Sequence record: MT446392.1
DNA from: Escherichia virus TH15
Reading direction: 5' to 3' (one strand)
DNA: 64,000 nucleotides
The notes under the pieces were generated by a model. That model made no database searches and had not been told where the DNA came from. It saw nothing but the letters and a program-made list of their open reading frames with translations. The position numbers and the translations under genes were made by a program. Of this stretch, positions 53,590 to 63,279 are shown piece after piece. The first letter of the stretch is position 1, and every line of letters starts with the position of its first letter.

Positions 53590-55113
53590 ATGCAAGAATT
53601 TTATTTAACTATCGAACAAATCGGTGACAACCTGCTCGAACGGTACATTGACAAGAATGGTCATGAACGTGTTCGTGAAATCCCTTATGCTCCATGCTTG
53701 TTTATGCATGCTCGCGAAGACCAGGCTGCAAAGTATACAGACATCTATAATAAAGGTTGTGTGAAAAAAGAATTCGATTCCATGCGTGATGCATCCCAGT
53801 GGATGAAGCGCATGAACGATATGGGCCTCGAAGCTATGGGTATGGACGATTTCAAACTCGCGTACCTGAGCGACCGTTACCCACATGAAATCAAATACGA
53901 TTCAAGTAAAATCCGTGTGGCTAACTTCGATATCGAGGTGACATCTCCTGATGGGTTCCCTGAGCCGTCTGAAGCACGTCACCCTATCGATGCCCTGACG
54001 CACTATGATTCGGTAGACGATAAATTCTATGTCTTTGACCTTTTGAGCTCGCCATACGCCACTGTGGAGCAATGGTCTATTGATATTGCTGCTAAGCTGC
54101 AGGAAGATGGCGGTGATGAAGTCCCCGAAGAAATCCTGGAAAAAATTGTTTATATGGCTTTCGATTCAGAAGAAGAAATGCTCCAGCAGTATTTGGTATT
54201 CTGGAACGAGAAAACTCCGGTTATGTTAACTGGTTGGAACATCGAGAAATTTGATATTCCGTATATCTACAACCGCATTAAAAATGTATTTGGTGAAGCT
54301 ACGGCCAAACGTCTGAGCCCACATCGTCGTACAAAAGTTAAAGTCATTAACAACGGCTTTGGTGAAGAACAAGAAATCATTCAGATTCTGGGTATCTCTG
54401 TTCTGGATTATCTGGACCTGTACAAAAAGTTCAGCTTCACAAACCAACCGTCTTACTCGTTGGACTATGTTGCGGAATCTGAGCTGGGTGTTGGTAAACT
54501 TCCGTATGATGGCCCGATTTCTAAATTACGTGAATCCAATCACCAGCGATACATCAGCTATAACATCATTGACGTTTATCGTGTTGTGCAGATTGACCGT
54601 AAGCGACAGTTCATTAACCTGAGCCAATCGATGGGTTATTATGCAAAGATGCAGATTCAGTCTGTATTCAGCCCAATCAAAACTTGGGATGCGATTATCT
54701 TTAACAGTCTGAAGACTCAAAACAAGGTTATCCCTGAAACCAAATCACATGTTCGTCAATCGTTCCCTGGTGCATTTGTTAAGGAACCGATTCCGAACGC
54801 ATACAAATATGTAATGAGCTGTGACTTAACATCTCTGTATCCGAGCATCATCCGACAGATTAACATCAGTCCAGAAACGATTGCCGGGTCATTTGCACCA
54901 GCCCAGATGCACGAATACATCGCAGGAACTGCTGACCGTCCATCTGATGCATTTAGTTGTGCGCCAAATGGTATGATGTATTTTAAAGATGTTGCGGGTA
55001 TTATTCCGACAGAAGTTGAGAAAGTTTTTAATCAACGAAAAACCGAAAAGAAAAAGATGTTGGCGGCACAACGTAATAGTGAATTGATTAAAGAAATTTT
55101 ACATGGAAAATAA
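53590..55113 (+). CDS. 43: DNA polymerase gp43, N-terminal segment (exonuclease and N-terminal domains)
   Basis: 507-aa ORF ending in a stop; contains B-family polymerase N-terminal and 3'-5' exonuclease regions (e.g. FDIEV); continues in ORF 55791..56966. Confidence 0.85.
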   Translation: MQEFYLTIEQIGDNLLERYIDKNGHERVREIPYAPCLFMHAREDQAAKYTDIYNKGCVKKEFDSMRDASQWMKRMNDMGLEAMGMDDFKLAYLSDRYPHEIKYDSSKIRVANFDIEVTSPDGFPEPSEARHPIDALTHYDSVDDKFYVFDLLSSPYATVEQWSIDIAAKLQEDGGDEVPEEILEKIVYMAFDSEEEMLQQYLVFWNEKTPVMLTGWNIEKFDIPYIYNRIKNVFGEATAKRLSPHRRTKVKVINNGFGEEQEIIQILGISVLDYLDLYKKFSFTNQPSYSLDYVAESELGVGKLPYDGPISKLRESNHQRYISYNIIDVYRVVQIDRKRQFINLSQSMGYYAKMQIQSVFSPIKTWDAIIFNSLKTQNKVIPETKSHVRQSFPGAFVKEPIPNAYKYVMSCDLTSLYPSIIRQINISPETIAGSFAPAQMHEYIAGTADRPSDAFSCAPNGMMYFKDVAGIIPTEVEKVFNQRKTEKKKMLAAQRNSELIKEILHGK

Positions 55114-55801
55114 ATTGCATTTTGTGTATAAAATTACAAATAACATTAATGGTAAAATTTACATCGGTGTTCACAGCACCGATGATATTAATGATGGATA
55201 TTTGGGCAAAGGTACTTTAATTCAGAAAGCTATTAAAAAATATGGGAAATCTAATTTTAAAAAGGAAATTTTGGAATTTTTCGAGGACCGCACTTCAGCC
55301 TTTGACAAAGAGCGAGAGCTTGTAACCAGAGAATTTGTCAGTTTGACAACAAACTATAATTTAAAAACTGGCGGCGAAGGTGGTGCAATGTATGGTAAAA
55401 CCAATCCGATGTATGGTCGAACATATAGGAAGTCGGAATCAGAGAAGACCCAAATTTCGTTGCGATTTAAAAATGTTCCCAAAACCAACCAGCACAAACA
55501 AAACCTATCCAATTCATTACTCGGTAAACCCAGACCGGACATCGCTGAGAGACAGCGCGGATTGTTACCCTGGAATGTTAATTCTATTCGCAATAACAAA
55601 ACCAGACTAAGAAAATTCGCCGACCTGGATATTATTTTCGATTATTGGTCTAGTCATAAATGTGGTGTTAAAGCATTAGCGAATTGGTATCAACTGGCGA
55701 CGTATAATGAATTAGCATCCGTTATGCGATTCATTAAAAAGTATGGTGACCCGCGACTGAATGGTGATTGGAAAAAATTTAAGGCTGACTATGAATATTG
55801 A
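55103..55801 (+). CDS. GIY-YIG homing endonuclease inserted within gene 43
   Basis: 232 aa; HFVYKITNNINGKIYIGVHS is a GIY-(10 aa)-YIG module; MYGKTNPMYGRT repeats; overlaps both polymerase ORFs by about 11 nt. Confidence 0.75.
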   Translation: MENKLHFVYKITNNINGKIYIGVHSTDDINDGYLGKGTLIQKAIKKYGKSNFKKEILEFFEDRTSAFDKERELVTREFVSLTTNYNLKTGGEGGAMYGKTNPMYGRTYRKSESEKTQISLRFKNVPKTNQHKQNLSNSLLGKPRPDIAERQRGLLPWNVNSIRNNKTRLRKFADLDIIFDYWSSHKCGVKALANWYQLATYNELASVMRFIKKYGDPRLNGDWKKFKADYEY

Positions 55802-56966
55802 TTATAATGCTGATTTTACAGAAGAACAAATCGAATACTTAAAAACTTTGTCTAAAGATGAATTGGAACACCATTTATACAATTCTCAAATGGCTGAAGT
55901 AGCTGCAAACACCGCGCAGATTAACCGTAAACTGCTTATCAATAGCTGTTATGGTGCTCTGGGCAATATCTGGTTCCGTTACTTTGACCTGCGAAATGCA
56001 ACTGCGATTACATCTTTCGGGCAACTTGCATTGCAGTGGATTGAGCGTAAAGTTAACGAATACTTCGATAGTGTTTGTGGTACAAGTGGTGAGACTTACG
56101 TATTCTATGGCGATACTGACTCCATTTATATCCAGTGCGATAACCTGATTAAAAAGGTTGGTGGTGAATCTAAATTCCGCGATACAAACCACCTGGTTGA
56201 CTTCATGGACAAGTTTGCAAAAGACCGTCTGGAACCGGCAATTGATAAAGCTTTCCGTGAACTGGCCGAATACATGAACAATAAACAGCACCTTATGTTT
56301 ATGGACCGTGAAGCGATTGCATGTCCTCCGCTGGGTTCTAAAGGCGTGGGTGGATTCTGGACGGCGAAGAAGCGTTATGCGTTGAACGTGTATGATATGG
56401 AAGGCACACGATATGCTGTTCCGAAACTGAAAATTATGGGTCTGGAAACTCAAAAGTCGAGCACTCCAAAAGCATGTCAGAAAGCTCTGAAAGAATGTAT
56501 CCGTCGCATGCTGCAAGAAGGTGAAGAATCTCTGCAGACATACTTCAAGGAATTCAATAAGGAATTTAATGAGCTTAACTACATGACCATCGCAGGTGTA
56601 TCATCGGTTAACAACATCCAGAAATATAATGAGGGCGGTTTCCCTGGATTTAAGTGCCCGGCTCATATCAAAGGTGTGCTTGCATATATGCGTGCAACTA
56701 AAGGGCTGAAGACTGTTCCGCAAATCATGGAAGGGGAAAAGGTGTATGTGCTTCCTCTTAAAGTTGGTAATCCGTTTGGCGAAACCGTGATTGCGTGGCC
56801 ATCAGGGATTGAACTCCCGATTGAAATTCGTGACCAAGTCTTGCAGTGGATGGACTACAACACACTGTTCCAGAAGACTTTTGTTAAGCCATTGACAGGG
56901 TTCTCTGAAGCAGCTAAGGTTGATTACGAGAAAAAAGCATCTCTTTTTGATATGTTTGATTTTTAA
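55791..56966 (+). CDS. 43: DNA polymerase gp43, C-terminal segment (palm/thumb, motif C YGDTDS)
   Basis: Start at Met 11 of ORF 55761..56966; INSCYGALGN and YGDTDSIY polymerase motifs. Confidence 0.85.
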   Translation: MNIDYNADFTEEQIEYLKTLSKDELEHHLYNSQMAEVAANTAQINRKLLINSCYGALGNIWFRYFDLRNATAITSFGQLALQWIERKVNEYFDSVCGTSGETYVFYGDTDSIYIQCDNLIKKVGGESKFRDTNHLVDFMDKFAKDRLEPAIDKAFRELAEYMNNKQHLMFMDREAIACPPLGSKGVGGFWTAKKRYALNVYDMEGTRYAVPKLKIMGLETQKSSTPKACQKALKECIRRMLQEGEESLQTYFKEFNKEFNELNYMTIAGVSSVNNIQKYNEGGFPGFKCPAHIKGVLAYMRATKGLKTVPQIMEGEKVYVLPLKVGNPFGETVIAWPSGIELPIEIRDQVLQWMDYNTLFQKTFVKPLTGFSEAAKVDYEKKASLFDMFDF

Positions 56967-59199: not shown

Positions 59200-59533
59200 T
59201 ATCGATTTATCTGATTTAGATAATTTCGAGAAAGATGCGGAGGGAGCTAAGGCTCCTTCTGTGCCTTACTACGAAAAAAGTTTGGAGATTATCCGGCAAT
59301 CCATGGGAACTGTACGACAGGAAATTCTGTTATCACTTCCCGATGGGTCCAGTCACATCGTGTACGTAACCGGAATTAAAATTGAACCATCTGGAAAAGT
59401 TTCAGTTGATTTCGGCACCCCTTCTGAAGACCGCAAAGCGGAGCTTGCAGTGCATGTAGAAAAGTGTGTTACAATGCAAATACAAGATGAAATTGATAAG
59501 ATTAAAATGAAAAAGAGGTGGTGGAAGTGGTAG
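59189..59533 (+). CDS. 40: gp40-like protein
   Basis: 114-aa ORF between uvsX and gene 41 as in T4. Confidence 0.5.
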   Translation: MMSDIDLSDLDNFEKDAEGAKAPSVPYYEKSLEIIRQSMGTVRQEILLSLPDGSSHIVYVTGIKIEPSGKVSVDFGTPSEDRKAELAVHVEKCVTMQIQDEIDKIKMKKRWWKW

Positions 59534-60957
59534 AAACTATTTTATCCCAGCTACTCTTTAACAAGGAATATTTTGTTAAAGTCTGGCCATATCTGAATAA
59601 TACATATTTTGAAAAGGGTCCTGCGAAGACCCTTTTTAATACGATTAACGAACATGTAAAAGAATATCAAGCAGTGCCAACTAAGACTGCACTTGATATC
59701 GCGCTCGACGGTTCTGACCTTTCTGAAGTTGAATATGAAGGCACAAAGAAACTCTTAGGAGTCCTGGCCGATACTCCAGAAGACCAGGAATGGTTGGTCA
59801 GAGAAACCGAGAAGTATGTACAGAAGTCTGCGATGTTCAATGCCACATCCAGGATTATCGAAATCCAGAGTAATGCCGAACTTCCGAAAGATAAGCGTGA
59901 TAAACGAATCCCGGATATCGGGGCTATCCCTGACATTATGCGCGATGCATTGTCTATTTGTTTTGACTCTGCTCTGGGCCATGACTGGTTAAACGATTAC
60001 GAAGCTCGATTCCAGACTTATCTGAACAAATCGAAGAAAGTTCCGTTCCGTATTAACATCCTGAATAAAATTACGAAGGGTGGAGTTGAGTACGGTACAG
60101 AGAACGTTTTACTAGCCGGGACAAACGTCGGGAAATCCCTTGGACTCTGTTCATTAGCCGCTGACTATCTTCAGACTGGTCATAACGTTCTTTATATAAG
60201 CATGGAAATGGCTGAAGAAGTATGTGCCAAACGTATTGATGCCAACTTGCTGGATGTGTCTCTGGATGATATTGATGAAGGTCATATATCATGGGCGGAA
60301 TATAAAGCTAAGATGGAAAAATGGCGTGCTTCCGGGACTCTCGGGACTCTGAAGATAAAACAATATCCAACTGGGGGCGCGCATGCGGATACCTTCCGTG
60401 CATTACTGAACGAGTACAAACTGAAGCAAGGATTTGTACCAGATGTGATTATTGTTGACTACCTGGCAATCTGCGCAAGCTCAAGACTGAAAACGTTTAC
60501 CGAAAACAGTTACGGCCTGATTAAGATGGTTGCAGAAGAACTTCGTGGTCTGGCGGTCGAGAAAAATGTGGTCCTATGGACCGCGGCGCAGACAACCAGG
60601 GGCGCGAACGTTGCAGCTGAGATTGATATGGCTGACATCGCAGAATCCTTTGGTATTGCTCACACGGCTGACTTTATGTTGGGTGTTGTTGAGACCGAAG
60701 AATTCGCTCAAATGGGACTGCAGTTAATCAAACAGCTTAAGTCTCGTTATGGCGATAAGAACTACTATAATAAATTCAAGATGGGTGTTAAGAAAGGTAA
60801 TCAACGCTGGTATGAGGTTGATGATGATTCAGCTCCTAAACAAGGCCCTACGGTGAAAGAAGCCACTGGTGAGATGAATCGTCAGGCTGAAATGAATAGA
60901 CAAACCAGGGTCAACAGGAGCGACCTGGATGACCTTGCCGCTCAAATGAAATTTTAA
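59518..60957 (+). CDS. 41: replicative DNA helicase gp41
   Basis: 479 aa with GTG start (59518 or 59527); ...LFNKEYFVKVWPYLNNTYFE...GTNVGKSLGLCSLAADYLQTGHNVLYISMEMAEE... closely parallels T4 gp41. Confidence 0.9.
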   Translation: MVEVVETILSQLLFNKEYFVKVWPYLNNTYFEKGPAKTLFNTINEHVKEYQAVPTKTALDIALDGSDLSEVEYEGTKKLLGVLADTPEDQEWLVRETEKYVQKSAMFNATSRIIEIQSNAELPKDKRDKRIPDIGAIPDIMRDALSICFDSALGHDWLNDYEARFQTYLNKSKKVPFRINILNKITKGGVEYGTENVLLAGTNVGKSLGLCSLAADYLQTGHNVLYISMEMAEEVCAKRIDANLLDVSLDDIDEGHISWAEYKAKMEKWRASGTLGTLKIKQYPTGGAHADTFRALLNEYKLKQGFVPDVIIVDYLAICASSRLKTFTENSYGLIKMVAEELRGLAVEKNVVLWTAAQTTRGANVAAEIDMADIAESFGIAHTADFMLGVVETEEFAQMGLQLIKQLKSRYGDKNYYNKFKMGVKKGNQRWYEVDDDSAPKQGPTVKEATGEMNRQAEMNRQTRVNRSDLDDLAAQMKF

Positions 60958-60968
60958 AATATTTTAAA

Positions 60969-60989
60969 AGGGGCTTACAGCCCCTTTTT
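60969..60989 (+). terminator. rho-independent terminator after gene 41
   Basis: AGGGGC-TTACA-GCCCCT followed by TTTTTC. Confidence 0.65.
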
Positions 60990-61002
60990 CTTATGTTATA
61001 AT
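60973..61002 (+). promoter_or_regulatory. early promoter overlapping the terminator loop (-35 GCTTAC, -10 TATAAT)
   Basis: 18-nt spacer; leader GACCCTATCAACTACTGGAG. Confidence 0.45.
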
Positions 61003-61028
61003 GACCCTATCAACTACTGGAGAATAAA

Positions 61029-61346
61029 ATGAAAACTATTGATTGCAAAGCGGAATACAAAGTTTATTATCATGGCTCAAGCTCTAATGCTGGAATCCAA
61101 AATATGCTTTGCCCTCCTGATGCAACTGGTGTTCTGTCAGAAGTTGGGCGCAAGAAAAATTTAGGGCGTGTGTTTTTTACTGAAGATATTGGTTTGGCAC
61201 GTATCTATGCAGGAAGAGCAGCTCGTTCAGTGGGAGGAGAACCCCGTCTTTATCGTGTGATTGCACCTGTTGATGTGGTTTGTTTAAATGATACTAAAGG
61301 CGCAACAGTTTATCACGCAGACTGGGCGTTTTGTGAGGAAATCTAA
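61029..61346 (+). CDS. small protein with ADP-ribosyltransferase-fold-like H-G-S motif (tentative)
   Basis: 105 aa; KVYYHGSSSNAGIQNML...GRVFFTEDIGLARIYA resembles the H-G-S ... aromatic ... acidic layout of PARP/Tpt1-type folds. Confidence 0.3.
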   Translation: MKTIDCKAEYKVYYHGSSSNAGIQNMLCPPDATGVLSEVGRKKNLGRVFFTEDIGLARIYAGRAARSVGGEPRLYRVIAPVDVVCLNDTKGATVYHADWAFCEEI

Positions 61347-61559
61347 ATGTATAAATTAGAGAACGTAGTGTTTATTGGTTGGTTTGAAAATGGTAATATG
61401 TTTACCAAAGAAACCGCGCTGGATGTTAGTGACCAAAAAATGATTGAATGGGTTACGGTGCAGTATGCAGAGGTGAATAATGCGCTGGTGAAAGCCTTTG
61501 TTAATGACAATAAAGTTTTTGAATGTGATTATCGTATCCACTTATCTGAGGAAATCTAA
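61347..61559 (+). CDS. hypothetical small protein, paralogue of 61560..61901
   Basis: 70 aa; shares the ...NNALVKAFVNDNKVFECD block with the next ORF; junction GAGGAAATCTAAATG on both sides. Confidence 0.45.
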   Translation: MYKLENVVFIGWFENGNMFTKETALDVSDQKMIEWVTVQYAEVNNALVKAFVNDNKVFECDYRIHLSEEI

Positions 61560-61901
61560 ATGGCTTTTAATCCAGAAGACCGCGTAAAAGTAACAATCAA
61601 AGTGAGTGCTGTTGGCGTTCCATCTTTTGAGCGCTCAAGTATGTTCCATCCCGCAGGTATTCACTGGTATGTTCAGAAGACTGCTGATAACTATAATGCG
61701 CTTGTTGAAGCTTTTGTTGATGACAAGCTAATTCATAAAGTAGACATGCGTAAGGGTACCGCATTGCGTAATCTGATTTTGACCGTTGAAGCGCAACTGT
61801 TAAATGAAGAAATCTGCCTTACTGATATTGAAGCAGCTCTTCATATTGCACGTGCTGAATATTACAACTTGACCGGTTTTTCAGTTGAAGGCGAAAAATA
61901 A
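61560..61901 (+). CDS. hypothetical protein, paralogue of 61347..61559
   Basis: 113 aa; shares the ...YNALVEAFVDDKLIHKVD block. Confidence 0.45.
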   Translation: MAFNPEDRVKVTIKVSAVGVPSFERSSMFHPAGIHWYVQKTADNYNALVEAFVDDKLIHKVDMRKGTALRNLILTVEAQLLNEEICLTDIEAALHIARAEYYNLTGFSVEGEK

Positions 61902-61936
61902 GTGTACAACAAAGGGATAATGCAGTATATTATCCC
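61902..61936 (+). promoter_or_regulatory. early promoter cassette: -35 GTGTAC, -10 TATATT inside palindrome GGGATAA...TATCCC
   Basis: 18-nt spacer; leader ATCAACTACTGAGGAG. Confidence 0.55.
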
Positions 61937-61959
61937 TATCAACTACTGAGGAGATTGAA

Positions 61960-62253
61960 ATGAAAAAGTTATTAATCGCGGCAATTCTTACCGTAGCATC
62001 ATGTGGTACAGCTCCTGTAACCGCTGGACTTGATAAAGACCTTTGTGAGTGGTCTATGACTGCTGACCAGACTGATGTTGAACATCAGATTTATGCTGAT
62101 ATCATGAATATTACTAAACGTGACCGCCCAGATATGGTTAAAGAAGTATCTGACCAACTGGCTTCTGGCGACGTTATGCAGTATAACTATGTTCTGTATT
62201 GCGATGCTTCATTTGACAACAGCAAGATTGTTCAATGGGTTACAGGTGAATAA
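61960..62253 (+). CDS. putative lipoprotein
   Basis: 97 aa; signal peptide with lipobox TVASC. Confidence 0.5.
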   Translation: MKKLLIAAILTVASCGTAPVTAGLDKDLCEWSMTADQTDVEHQIYADIMNITKRDRPDMVKEVSDQLASGDVMQYNYVLYCDASFDNSKIVQWVTGE

Positions 62254-62254
62254 A

Positions 62255-62695
62255 ATGATTAACAGAAATTTAGTTATCAAAAAACTTCGTTGTAAAAATC
62301 AAAATGCACAGGCATACAGGATGTTTTGGAGCGACGACCCCATCCAATACCTGGGTTATTTTCTTGTTGATAGTGATAATAGAATTACGTTTGCTCATAA
62401 ACTTCTTAACAAAGAATTAAACCATTGGCAAGAACTTATTGCGGTCAAGTCTAAATTATTTTCGCGCAATACAATGCACCAATTGGTTTATTTTTTCGCT
62501 GATGGTATTCCTGACAAGGTTGAATTTGATGGGTTTGAATTTAAAGACATCAACCCTGATAATGAATTGAATGACAGTATTGTTAATATGGGTATCCCGG
62601 GTAAGTACATCAAAAACAGTCTTTTGAAACTTCTGGAAACTCCTGTATATTCAGTTGACGACCAAATTTTTAATGCCTTCATGAAGCGAGATTAA
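62255..62695 (+). CDS. hypothetical protein, C-terminal DDQIFNAFMKRD tail
   Basis: Start at Met 46 of ORF 62120..62695, directly after the upstream stop; C-terminal tail shared with the next gene. Confidence 0.45.
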   Translation: MINRNLVIKKLRCKNQNAQAYRMFWSDDPIQYLGYFLVDSDNRITFAHKLLNKELNHWQELIAVKSKLFSRNTMHQLVYFFADGIPDKVEFDGFEFKDINPDNELNDSIVNMGIPGKYIKNSLLKLLETPVYSVDDQIFNAFMKRD

Positions 62696-62696
62696 T

Positions 62697-63056
62697 ATGA
62701 GTTATTATAATTTTCTGAATTTTGAACTGGTGAGCAATAATGATGGTAATGCCCGTTATGAATTTCGTGAGCCTCGGTTTAATCAGGCGATTGGTTATAT
62801 TATCGTTAAAGATGATGTTATCATAAAGGCTCGCTCATTTATGGTAATGAGTGGACCTTATGAAGATACTCGTGGCTATCCATTTGATAAAAAGAATGTA
62901 CGCGATTGTGCAGCATGGATAACCGGAAACCCTGAAATTGGGGTCATGATATCTACTGAAGCAAATGACATTCTGGAAGGGGCTTGGGTTAAAGCTCAAG
63001 AACTGCCTACTGATATTGATGACCAGATTTTTAATGCCTTCATGAAGCGAGGTTAA
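62697..63056 (+). CDS. hypothetical protein, C-terminal DDQIFNAFMKRG tail
   Basis: 119 aa; the last 12 codons plus stop/start junction are near-identical to those of the preceding gene. Confidence 0.45.
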   Translation: MSYYNFLNFELVSNNDGNARYEFREPRFNQAIGYIIVKDDVIIKARSFMVMSGPYEDTRGYPFDKKNVRDCAAWITGNPEIGVMISTEANDILEGAWVKAQELPTDIDDQIFNAFMKRG

Positions 63057-63057
63057 T

Positions 63058-63279
63058 ATGTTTGTTTTGACCCAATTCTCTAAAGCAATATATAGTTACT
63101 CTTGTCAGTGGGAAGTCTTTATTGATACTCCTTCGCCTAAGTATGGTGTTTTTGGACGAGTAACTACACAAGCTTACGTTGCGCGACCGACTAAACGTCA
63201 GATTCGTAAGCTTAAAAAGGCACATCGTCAATTGATTAAAAGAAGGGAACAATATGAGTGCAATGTGTACGGGCTCTAA
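63058..63279 (+). CDS. hypothetical basic small protein
   Basis: 73-aa ORF, translationally coupled. Confidence 0.4.
   Translation: MFVLTQFSKAIYSYSCQWEVFIDTPSPKYGVFGRVTTQAYVARPTKRQIRKLKKAHRQLIKRREQYECNVYGL

Follow-up and report, generated by a model that had tools for sequence, protein, structure and literature searches.

Why two adjacent genes of a coliphage should end in the same short sequence, and should pass to the following start codon in the same manner, is the question raised by a locus of Escherichia virus TH15 (record MT446392.1), which we analyzed within a window comprising a stretch of 64,000 nucleotides. The window derives from a T4-like coliphage of the Gaprivervirus group, and the locus, which lies between sp and primase gene 61, is 95 to 99% identical to those of TH54, PSD2001, VR20, and SP18. 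Genes are arranged in the order gene 41 helicase (59518-60957), a 105-aa open reading frame (ORF), dmd, a 113-aa dmd paralog, sp, the two genes under study (A and B), a 73-aa DUF7279 gene, a 63-aa gene, 61.1, and gene 61 primase. The corresponding interval of T4 carries dmd (anti-RnlA), 61.4/tifA (anti-ToxN), and 61.2/adfA (anti-DarT) and has been named an anti-TA island (PMC9391042, PMC11257639). We consider it likely that A and B are tandem, diverged paralogs of AdfA and that the coding tail which they share doubles as a recombination junction for the gain and loss of gene copies. The features on which this argument turns are as follows.

61960..62253, plus strand: sp (spackle), Pfam T4_Spackle E=1.4e-43; conserved left flank of the variable slot
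62255..62695, plus strand: gene A, 146 aa, phrog_8539; ends ...SVDDQIFNAFMKRD
62655-62699, plus strand: junction copy 1, TTGACGACCAAATTTTTAATGCCTTCATGAAGCGAGATTAATATG; codons (S)VDDQIFNAFMKRD at 62657-62692, stop TAA at 62693-62695, gene B ATG at 62697-62699
62697..63056, plus strand: gene B, 119 aa, phrog_4122 E=2e-52; ends ...DIDDQIFNAFMKRG
62700..63060, plus strand: cassette of 361 bp (B body and one tail), which relatives have or lack as a whole
63016-63060, plus strand: junction copy 2, TTGATGACCAGATTTTTAATGCCTTCATGAAGCGAGGTTAATATG; codons (D)IDDQIFNAFMKRG at 63018-63053, stop TAA at 63054-63056, ATG of the 73-aa gene at 63058-63060
63058..63279, plus strand: 73-aa gene, Pfam DUF7279 E=3e-20; one of four alternative partners downstream of the junction

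The two copies of the repeat are identical at 42 of 45 nt and are spaced 361 nt start to start. The sequence itself, a pattern search, and a repeat finder agreed on both, confirming the preliminary description of two adjacent genes with a common 45-nt end; the coordinates given there (62652-62699 and 63012-63060) were 3 to 4 nt too generous on the 5' side and otherwise correct. The pattern search located no further copy in the 64-kb window, and none arose in 100 dinucleotide shuffles of it, ruling out chance or low complexity as the origin of the repeat. In each copy, the last 12 to 13 codons of one ORF are followed by TAA, a single base, and the next ORF's ATG; coding sequence accounts for 38 to 39 of the 45 nt and the stop/start overlap for the remainder. 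The encoded peptide, (S)(V/I)DDQIFNAFM(K/N)R(G/D), leads into an SD-stop-start signal, GAGrTTAATATG, with the final 12 nt, GAG(G/A)TTAATATG, combining an SD-like GAGG with the stop and the start that follows. Copy 1 has GAGA upstream of the next ATG, whereas copy 2 has the SD-like GAGG.

Gene bodies and their relation to AdfA

The preliminary description referred to the two proteins as otherwise different. This holds at the BLAST level, since BLASTP aligns A with B over the last 27 residues only, but is qualified by tests at the profile level. Cross-matches of the window proteins in PHROG and Pfam were likewise confined to the tail: the tail of A matched the PHROG family of B and vice versa, both matched that of AdfA, and the B tail matched the final 17 profile positions of Pfam AdfA (T4 gp61.2; PF23813), scoring 21.4 bits (residues 103-119 against profile positions 195-211), below the 27-bit gathering cutoff. 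No Pfam AdfA match was obtained for A at E<=1. NCBIfam yielded no matches, even for a true AdfA, and word-indexed homolog searches returned close relatives only, or, with a profile of the tail alone, mostly fragments. The tail-only alignments and the lack of an NCBIfam match are what one would expect if A and B were unrelated proteins of independent origin, each of which captured a common 3' end in the slot.

We nevertheless regard independent origins as highly improbable, given the behavior of the proteins' relatives and of profiles from which the tail had been trimmed. T2-type B (P0051) aligns with Pfam AdfA over about 100 residues at 32.4 bits, above the 27-bit cutoff (residues 21-118 against profile positions 112-211), and two other B relatives score 26.1 bits (P0054, residues 35-120) and 26.0 bits (P0053). 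Window B is itself clearly homologous to T2-type B after removal of the tail (BLASTP, 41% identity, E=6e-24). In tail-trimmed hhalign comparisons, B matched the C-terminal half of AdfA with p=9e-5 and the N-terminal half with p=3e-4, and A matched B with p=2e-3 and AdfA with p=0.02-0.04, the alignments on which homology of A is based being shallow (Neff about 2). After trimming of the tail, the profiles of A, of B, and of the two halves of AdfA are collinear over the same elements, a "GYIIVKDxxI" hairpin, an "F-x-x-x-N-h-x-x-x-A" helix, and the strand that follows. A divergent A relative, A2 (P0043), aligned pairwise with residues 127-188 of T4 AdfA at E=5e-3. AlphaFold models of A and B have a common core topology of beta-meander, helix, and strand, the tail forming a short terminal helix. 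In the AF2 model of A, an N-terminal beta-meander core (pLDDT 75-86) is followed by a low-confidence linker of about 30 residues (104-133, pLDDT below 50) and the tail helix (134-143). The B model is of low confidence (pLDDT 52); its best non-self BFVD match in Foldseek was an A-family protein (E=7.7e-3, probability 0.98).

To judge from the profile alignments, B has a single domain homologous to the C-terminal half of AdfA, and A is probably a diverged single-domain paralog of the same family, its homology inferred from weaker statistics. The earlier reading, in which unrelated bodies merely share a junction, was accordingly abandoned for B, a homolog of the AdfA C-terminal half, and has become doubtful for A, a weaker match to the same family. 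AdfA, with 208 to 216 aa, has the appearance of a fusion of two such domains; A and B, with one domain each, fall below the Pfam cutoff, and the full-length two-half architecture of about 210 aa is found in neither. They do end, at the extreme C terminus, in the AdfA-type motif (V/I)DDQIFNAFM(N/K)R(G/D), and the window locus occupies the AdfA-type position, with sp immediately preceding and 61.1/61 downstream. The slot, the C-terminal peptide, and the stop/start junction of AdfA are thus all as in A and B, and sp lay directly upstream of an AdfA-family gene in every relative examined.

Binding and neutralization of the DarT1 toxin have been reported for AdfA alone, and T2 is treated in the literature as lacking adfA (PMC11257639). 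T2 (L005, 1673-1684 and 1685-2041) carries B, a half-size AdfA homolog, a close relative of which passes the Pfam AdfA cutoff. Between sp and B, T2 also retains a 14-nt remnant of a tail (TAGAGGTTAGTATG), evidently the ribosome-binding site of B. In some complete Tequatrovirus genomes, B is reduced to a 33-aa 3' remnant with the tail intact (P0046-P0048).

The tail as peptide and translational signal

When 1.84e9 representative proteins were searched exhaustively with a profile, the tail was recovered in only about nine clusters, all of A, B, or AdfA type; they comprise A, the divergent A2, four B subtypes, and AdfA. Junction DNA was found in phages at 753 places in 557 records, including T4, T2, and RB68, and the AdfA of RB69 carries the same C-terminal peptide. 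Over 40 unique sequence contexts, conservation sets in abruptly three codons before DDQIFNAFM, and positions upstream of the tail show up to 10 different residues each. The codons for tail residues D, D, Q, I, N, A, and F exist in synonymous alternatives (GAC/GAT, CAA/CAG, ATT/ATA, GCC/GCT/GCA, and TTT/TTC); after the M, the residues are N or K and then R or K, with G or D as the last. Amino acid invariance over the 40 contexts was partly built in by the search pattern, and independent support for it comes from the junction-DNA record search, the tail profile search, and Pfam AdfA scoring. Viral and metagenome scans also returned several internal, nonterminal DQIFNAFM matches in unrelated proteins. 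Since variation within the tail is synonymous, the selected object would be the peptide and not a DNA site, and the idea that the repeat is a dedicated DNA recombination site did not survive this finding. From its pattern of variation, the repeat is best described as a conserved C-terminal peptide joined to a translational-coupling signal, that is, a peptide kept together with a ribosome-binding and start signal; across the alignments, the tail ranks as the most conserved part of the AdfA family.

A 10-nt perfect palindrome, CTTCATGAAG, is centered on the Met codon of both window tails (62677-62686 and 63038-63047). It arises from the derived codons TTC and AAG in Gaprivervirus tails, is missing from the tails of T4, RB69, and JS10, and may be coincidental.

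Conservation of the tail might also be attributed to a regulatory element in DNA or RNA, either an RNA structure or a MotA-dependent middle promoter (Mot box plus -10 TAATAT) from which primase and the downstream genes would be transcribed. The sequence of Tequatrovirus tails, TAATGCTTTT-N12-TAATAT, departs by a single base from the published consensus wwwTGCTTtA-N11-13-TataAT (PMC1524935), and the annotation of phage Lutter marks both tails as 27-nt "promoter" features. We find such an element very unlikely as the explanation: the GCTT core is present in Tequatrovirus tails only and hinges on the third base of the Ala codon, which varies freely among GCT, GCC, and GCA, and the core is mismatched in RB69 (GCAT) and in the window (GCCT). 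The window does have a -10 TAATAT at the right spacing, its core being read as GCCT or CCTT with one mismatch in either register, but this hexamer overlaps the stop and start, so that transcription from it would start within the following gene. The original T4 records annotate no promoter here, and no experimental record of a promoter at the tail was found in the literature and records searched. A middle promoter was rejected as the cause of cross-genus conservation because one base of its core is a synonymous position that varies freely; it could be a Tequatrovirus-specific addition only. RNA folding gave no structure that was either stable or conserved (z = +1.8, +1.1, -1.4, and +1.1), and RNA structure at the junction was discarded since the folds were no more stable than those of shuffles. 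A promoter scan found no sigma-70 promoter common to both copies, the sole nearby site (62624-62651) lying upstream of copy 1 and being unrepeated, and no terminator-like site was found at either copy.

Gain and loss of cassettes among relatives

The preliminary description proposed a search of relatives for the same junction flanking different gene bodies, and the outcome was positive. The tail follows any of three gene bodies (A, B, and AdfA) and precedes any of four genes, and 9 of the 12 possible combinations were seen. The arrangements are as follows.

T4: sp-AdfA-tail-61.1
T2: sp-B-tail-61.1
RB68, CrRp10, slur04, Lutter, L023, L038, L039, and L049: AdfA-tail-B-tail-61.1
Window, SP18, VR20, VR25, and PSD2001: A-tail-B-tail-73aa
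VR26 and Dhakavirus relatives: A-tail-73aa
JS10: A-tail-63aa
RB69 and relatives: AdfA-tail-65aa
L045: A-tail-B-tail-63aa

The 73-aa gene directly follows the tail in the window, VR26, and the Dhakavirus relatives. Alignment of the window with VR26, the JS98-type phage L017, and JS10 left a gap of exactly one 361-bp unit, bounded by the repeat, and alignment of RB68 with T4 showed T4 to be short by exactly one "tail + B" unit; natural relatives in two genera thus differ by exactly one repeat unit. The tail variants of T4 AdfA (GAT GAC ... AGA) are those of the B tail in RB68. The single tail of VR26 is A-type right up to TAATATG, from which its arrangement may be the ancestral state and not a deletion product.

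In JS10 (L006, approximately 2055-2062, compared with window 63054-63256), the 73-aa DUF7279 gene has been lost by deletion between two AATATG microhomologies, one in the stop/start of the tail and the other just before the ATG of the 63-aa gene, a gene-precise illegitimate deletion. In the window, the 73-aa and 63-aa ORFs, read in different frames, share 26 nt (63254-63279), and the 63-aa homolog in L045 appears truncated, at 45 aa.

Tail DNA groups by phage genus and not by gene body. All Tequatrovirus tails read GCT TTT ATG AAT A(G/A)A, and all Gaprivervirus tails read GC(C/T) TT(C/T) ATG AA(G/A) CGA, which includes an N-to-K replacement. Tails on different bodies in one genome differ at a mean of 2.3 of 36 nt, whereas tails on the same body in different genera differ at 4.75 (range, 3 to 7). 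The two tails of the window have 8 of 10 synonymous codon choices in common, including the rare GCC and CGA (p=0.005-0.036). That tail codons follow genus rather than body argues for exchange within or at the tail. In T4, segments at this same locus have been amplified and deleted experimentally via homologies of 6 to 10 bp (PMC9391042), so a repeat of 45 nt would be an ample substrate. The proposal that the repeat is a recombination junction is therefore retained in part: one-unit indels and genus-wise tail codons speak for it, but the tail is not a dedicated DNA site and the bodies that it joins are not unrelated.

It could be argued that conservation acts purely at the protein level, the tail being the C-terminal motif and ribosome-binding site of old paralogs and the indels having arisen by ordinary exchange in flanking genes. 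Tail substitutions are synonymous, the conservation boundary is sharp, and the tail is family-wide, all of which suit such an account, as does the downstream flank in Tequatrovirus, where 61.1 is nearly identical too and crossovers need not fall inside the tail. We hold it to be unlikely as a full account. Independent descent predicts that B tails should be alike across genera, yet each resembles the co-resident A or AdfA tail, and the likeness extends to the nonsynonymous N-to-K change and the rare GCC and CGA codons. Moreover, the right flank of window copy 1 and the left flank of copy 2 are both B body; because the B body lies between the two copies, the tail alone is left as homology for the exact one-unit indel relative to VR26. 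Conservation of the protein explains why the tail exists and does not explain the genus-wise covariation of its codons or the exact one-unit indels.

We return to the interpretation in which the coding tail of AdfA paralogs also serves as a junction. Tandem, extremely diverged single-domain paralogs of AdfA (anti-DarT factor A), A and B, would occupy a variable slot between sp and primase. The last tail codons, the stop, and the next ATG (GAGGTTAATATG) would provide the downstream gene with its ribosome-binding site and start. As the sole good DNA homology between bodies, the tail would offer a crossover point to the very active homologous recombination of the phage; tail-to-tail exchange would delete or insert a body together with one tail while preserving both reading frames and the downstream start, and the same exchange would homogenize co-resident tails. 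With ORFs kept in frame and the downstream start retained, the products should be viable and the events recurrent. Exchange might proceed by gene conversion, by unequal crossing-over, or by excision and reinsertion of a "B + tail" circle; how the crossover takes place (unequal exchange or mini-circle) and in which direction each event ran are matters that we infer. Unequal exchange should yield tandem B-B amplification as its reciprocal product; no such tandem was found in any collection covered by the viral and metagenome scans.

One record, DCP80 (L031), contains four junction copies and was considered as a candidate amplification but set aside as uninformative, being a gapped draft with an N run directly after copy 2. 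Although labeled a "complete genome," it is a 141-kb scaffold in which unrelated genes (modA) follow the N run (region of L031 4435-4474); with the N run placed after the second junction, the multiple copies are assembly artifacts.

A further possibility assigns the tail a function of its own, as a short linear docking motif, an amphipathic helix on a flexible linker, that tethers swappable anti-toxin "heads" (AdfA, A, and B) to a common partner, with the gp45 sliding clamp or another replisome hub as the favored candidate, and that serves as a recombination handle besides. We view this as distinctly unlikely. The models place an acidic/aromatic, probably helical segment at the terminus, beyond a flexible linker, as docking motifs typically are. 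The tail QIFNAF and the end of this phage's gp43, SLFDMFDF, follow a common pattern, h-F-(D/N)-x-F, which is a resemblance only, and the gp55-like protein of this phage ends DLDFLYG..; in RB69 and T4, the corresponding ends are clamp-binding peptides, of a hydrophobic/aromatic kind and at the extreme C terminus. DarT attacks single-stranded DNA at replication forks.

Parallels, implications, and neighboring features

The ingredients of the arrangement (the AdfA family, T4 short-homology recombination, and modular shuffling of the promoter-early stem-loop [PeSL] type) are known. PeSLs are mobile regulatory cassettes for modular shuffling in T4-type phages (PMC2839356, PMC4122927). As with PeSLs, short repeats flank an ORF in one phage and occur as a single copy in a close relative, here the window versus VR26 and L017 and RB68 versus T4; PeSLs too lie in hyperplastic regions, and homologous exchange from repeat to repeat, possibly via a mini-circle and keeping viable gene boundaries, has been proposed for them (PMC2839356). 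PeSLs are, however, intergenic, are about 100 bp long, and consist of a sigma-70 early promoter and a terminator stem-loop, whereas the present repeat is 45 nt long, lies inside coding sequence, and has neither a stem-loop nor a repeated sigma-70 promoter, on which grounds its identification as a PeSL was rejected. Its signal is translational (SD-stop-start), in contrast to the transcriptional signal of a PeSL, and by analogy the junction may be seen as a coding counterpart of PeSL shuffling cassettes.

Short-homology recombination in T4, known from dmd-tifA amplifications and compensating deletions, concerns the same phage group and the same locus, and in those events direct repeats bound the amplified or deleted segments, with one copy left at the junction (PMC9391042). 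The loss of the 73-aa gene from JS10 between AATATG repeats is of this type. The T4 repeats are fortuitous, of 6 to 10 bp, and differ from event to event, whereas the homology here extends over 45 nt and is a conserved part of the genes, so the same breakpoints would recur across genera. There is a likeness also to concerted evolution of tandem paralogs by gene conversion, in that co-resident tails share lineage-specific synonymous and nonsynonymous states; homogenization is nevertheless confined to the terminal 45-nt patch, and the rest has diverged beyond BLAST detection. No description of a coding tail and coupling signal as the recurrent breakpoint of an anti-defense paralog cassette was found in the literature searched.

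The locus falls within the T-even "anti-toxin island" (dmd, tifA, and adfA). Should A and B indeed be paralogs within the AdfA family, they would become candidate inhibitors of other DarT variants or of other toxins, and phages described as lacking adfA, such as T2, would still possess a half-size relative. The PeSL idea would be extended, in that modular shuffling in T4-type phages could use a coding tail and a translational-coupling signal and leave reading frames and start intact. Recurrent gain and loss of the 361-bp unit is predicted in phage stocks, and an invariant peptide of 11 to 13 residues on proteins that have diverged beyond recognition points to a shared interaction.

Several minor observations concern the surrounding region. 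PeSL-like composites, in which stem-loops overlap sigma-70-like promoter matches, are present at 60966-61002 (after gene 41) and 61903-61937 (before sp); they lead into an identical 15-mer, CCCTATCAACTACTG (61005-61019 and 61934-61948), and bracket the block of the 105-aa ORF, dmd, and the 113-aa gene. A second gene-end junction repeat, GAGGAAATCTAAATG, at 61329-61349 and 61542-61562, ends the 105-aa ORF (..CEEI) and dmd (..SEEI). The 113-aa gene that follows is a dmd paralog (Pfam Dmd E=1.7e-3), with a 34-nt repeat at 85% identity (61477-61510 versus 61693-61726). SP18 does not have this paralog, its dmd being fused to a similar gene-end sequence, GAAAAATAAGTG, and JS10 has a different gene after the GAGGAAATCTAAATG-type junction. 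Gene 43, for DNA polymerase, is split in the window (53590-56966) into an N-terminal part of 507 aa (53590-55113), containing the exonuclease and the start of the polymerase domain, and a C-terminal part of 401 aa (55761-56966), between which a 232-aa GIY-YIG (SegE-like) endonuclease ORF (55103-55801) overlaps both.
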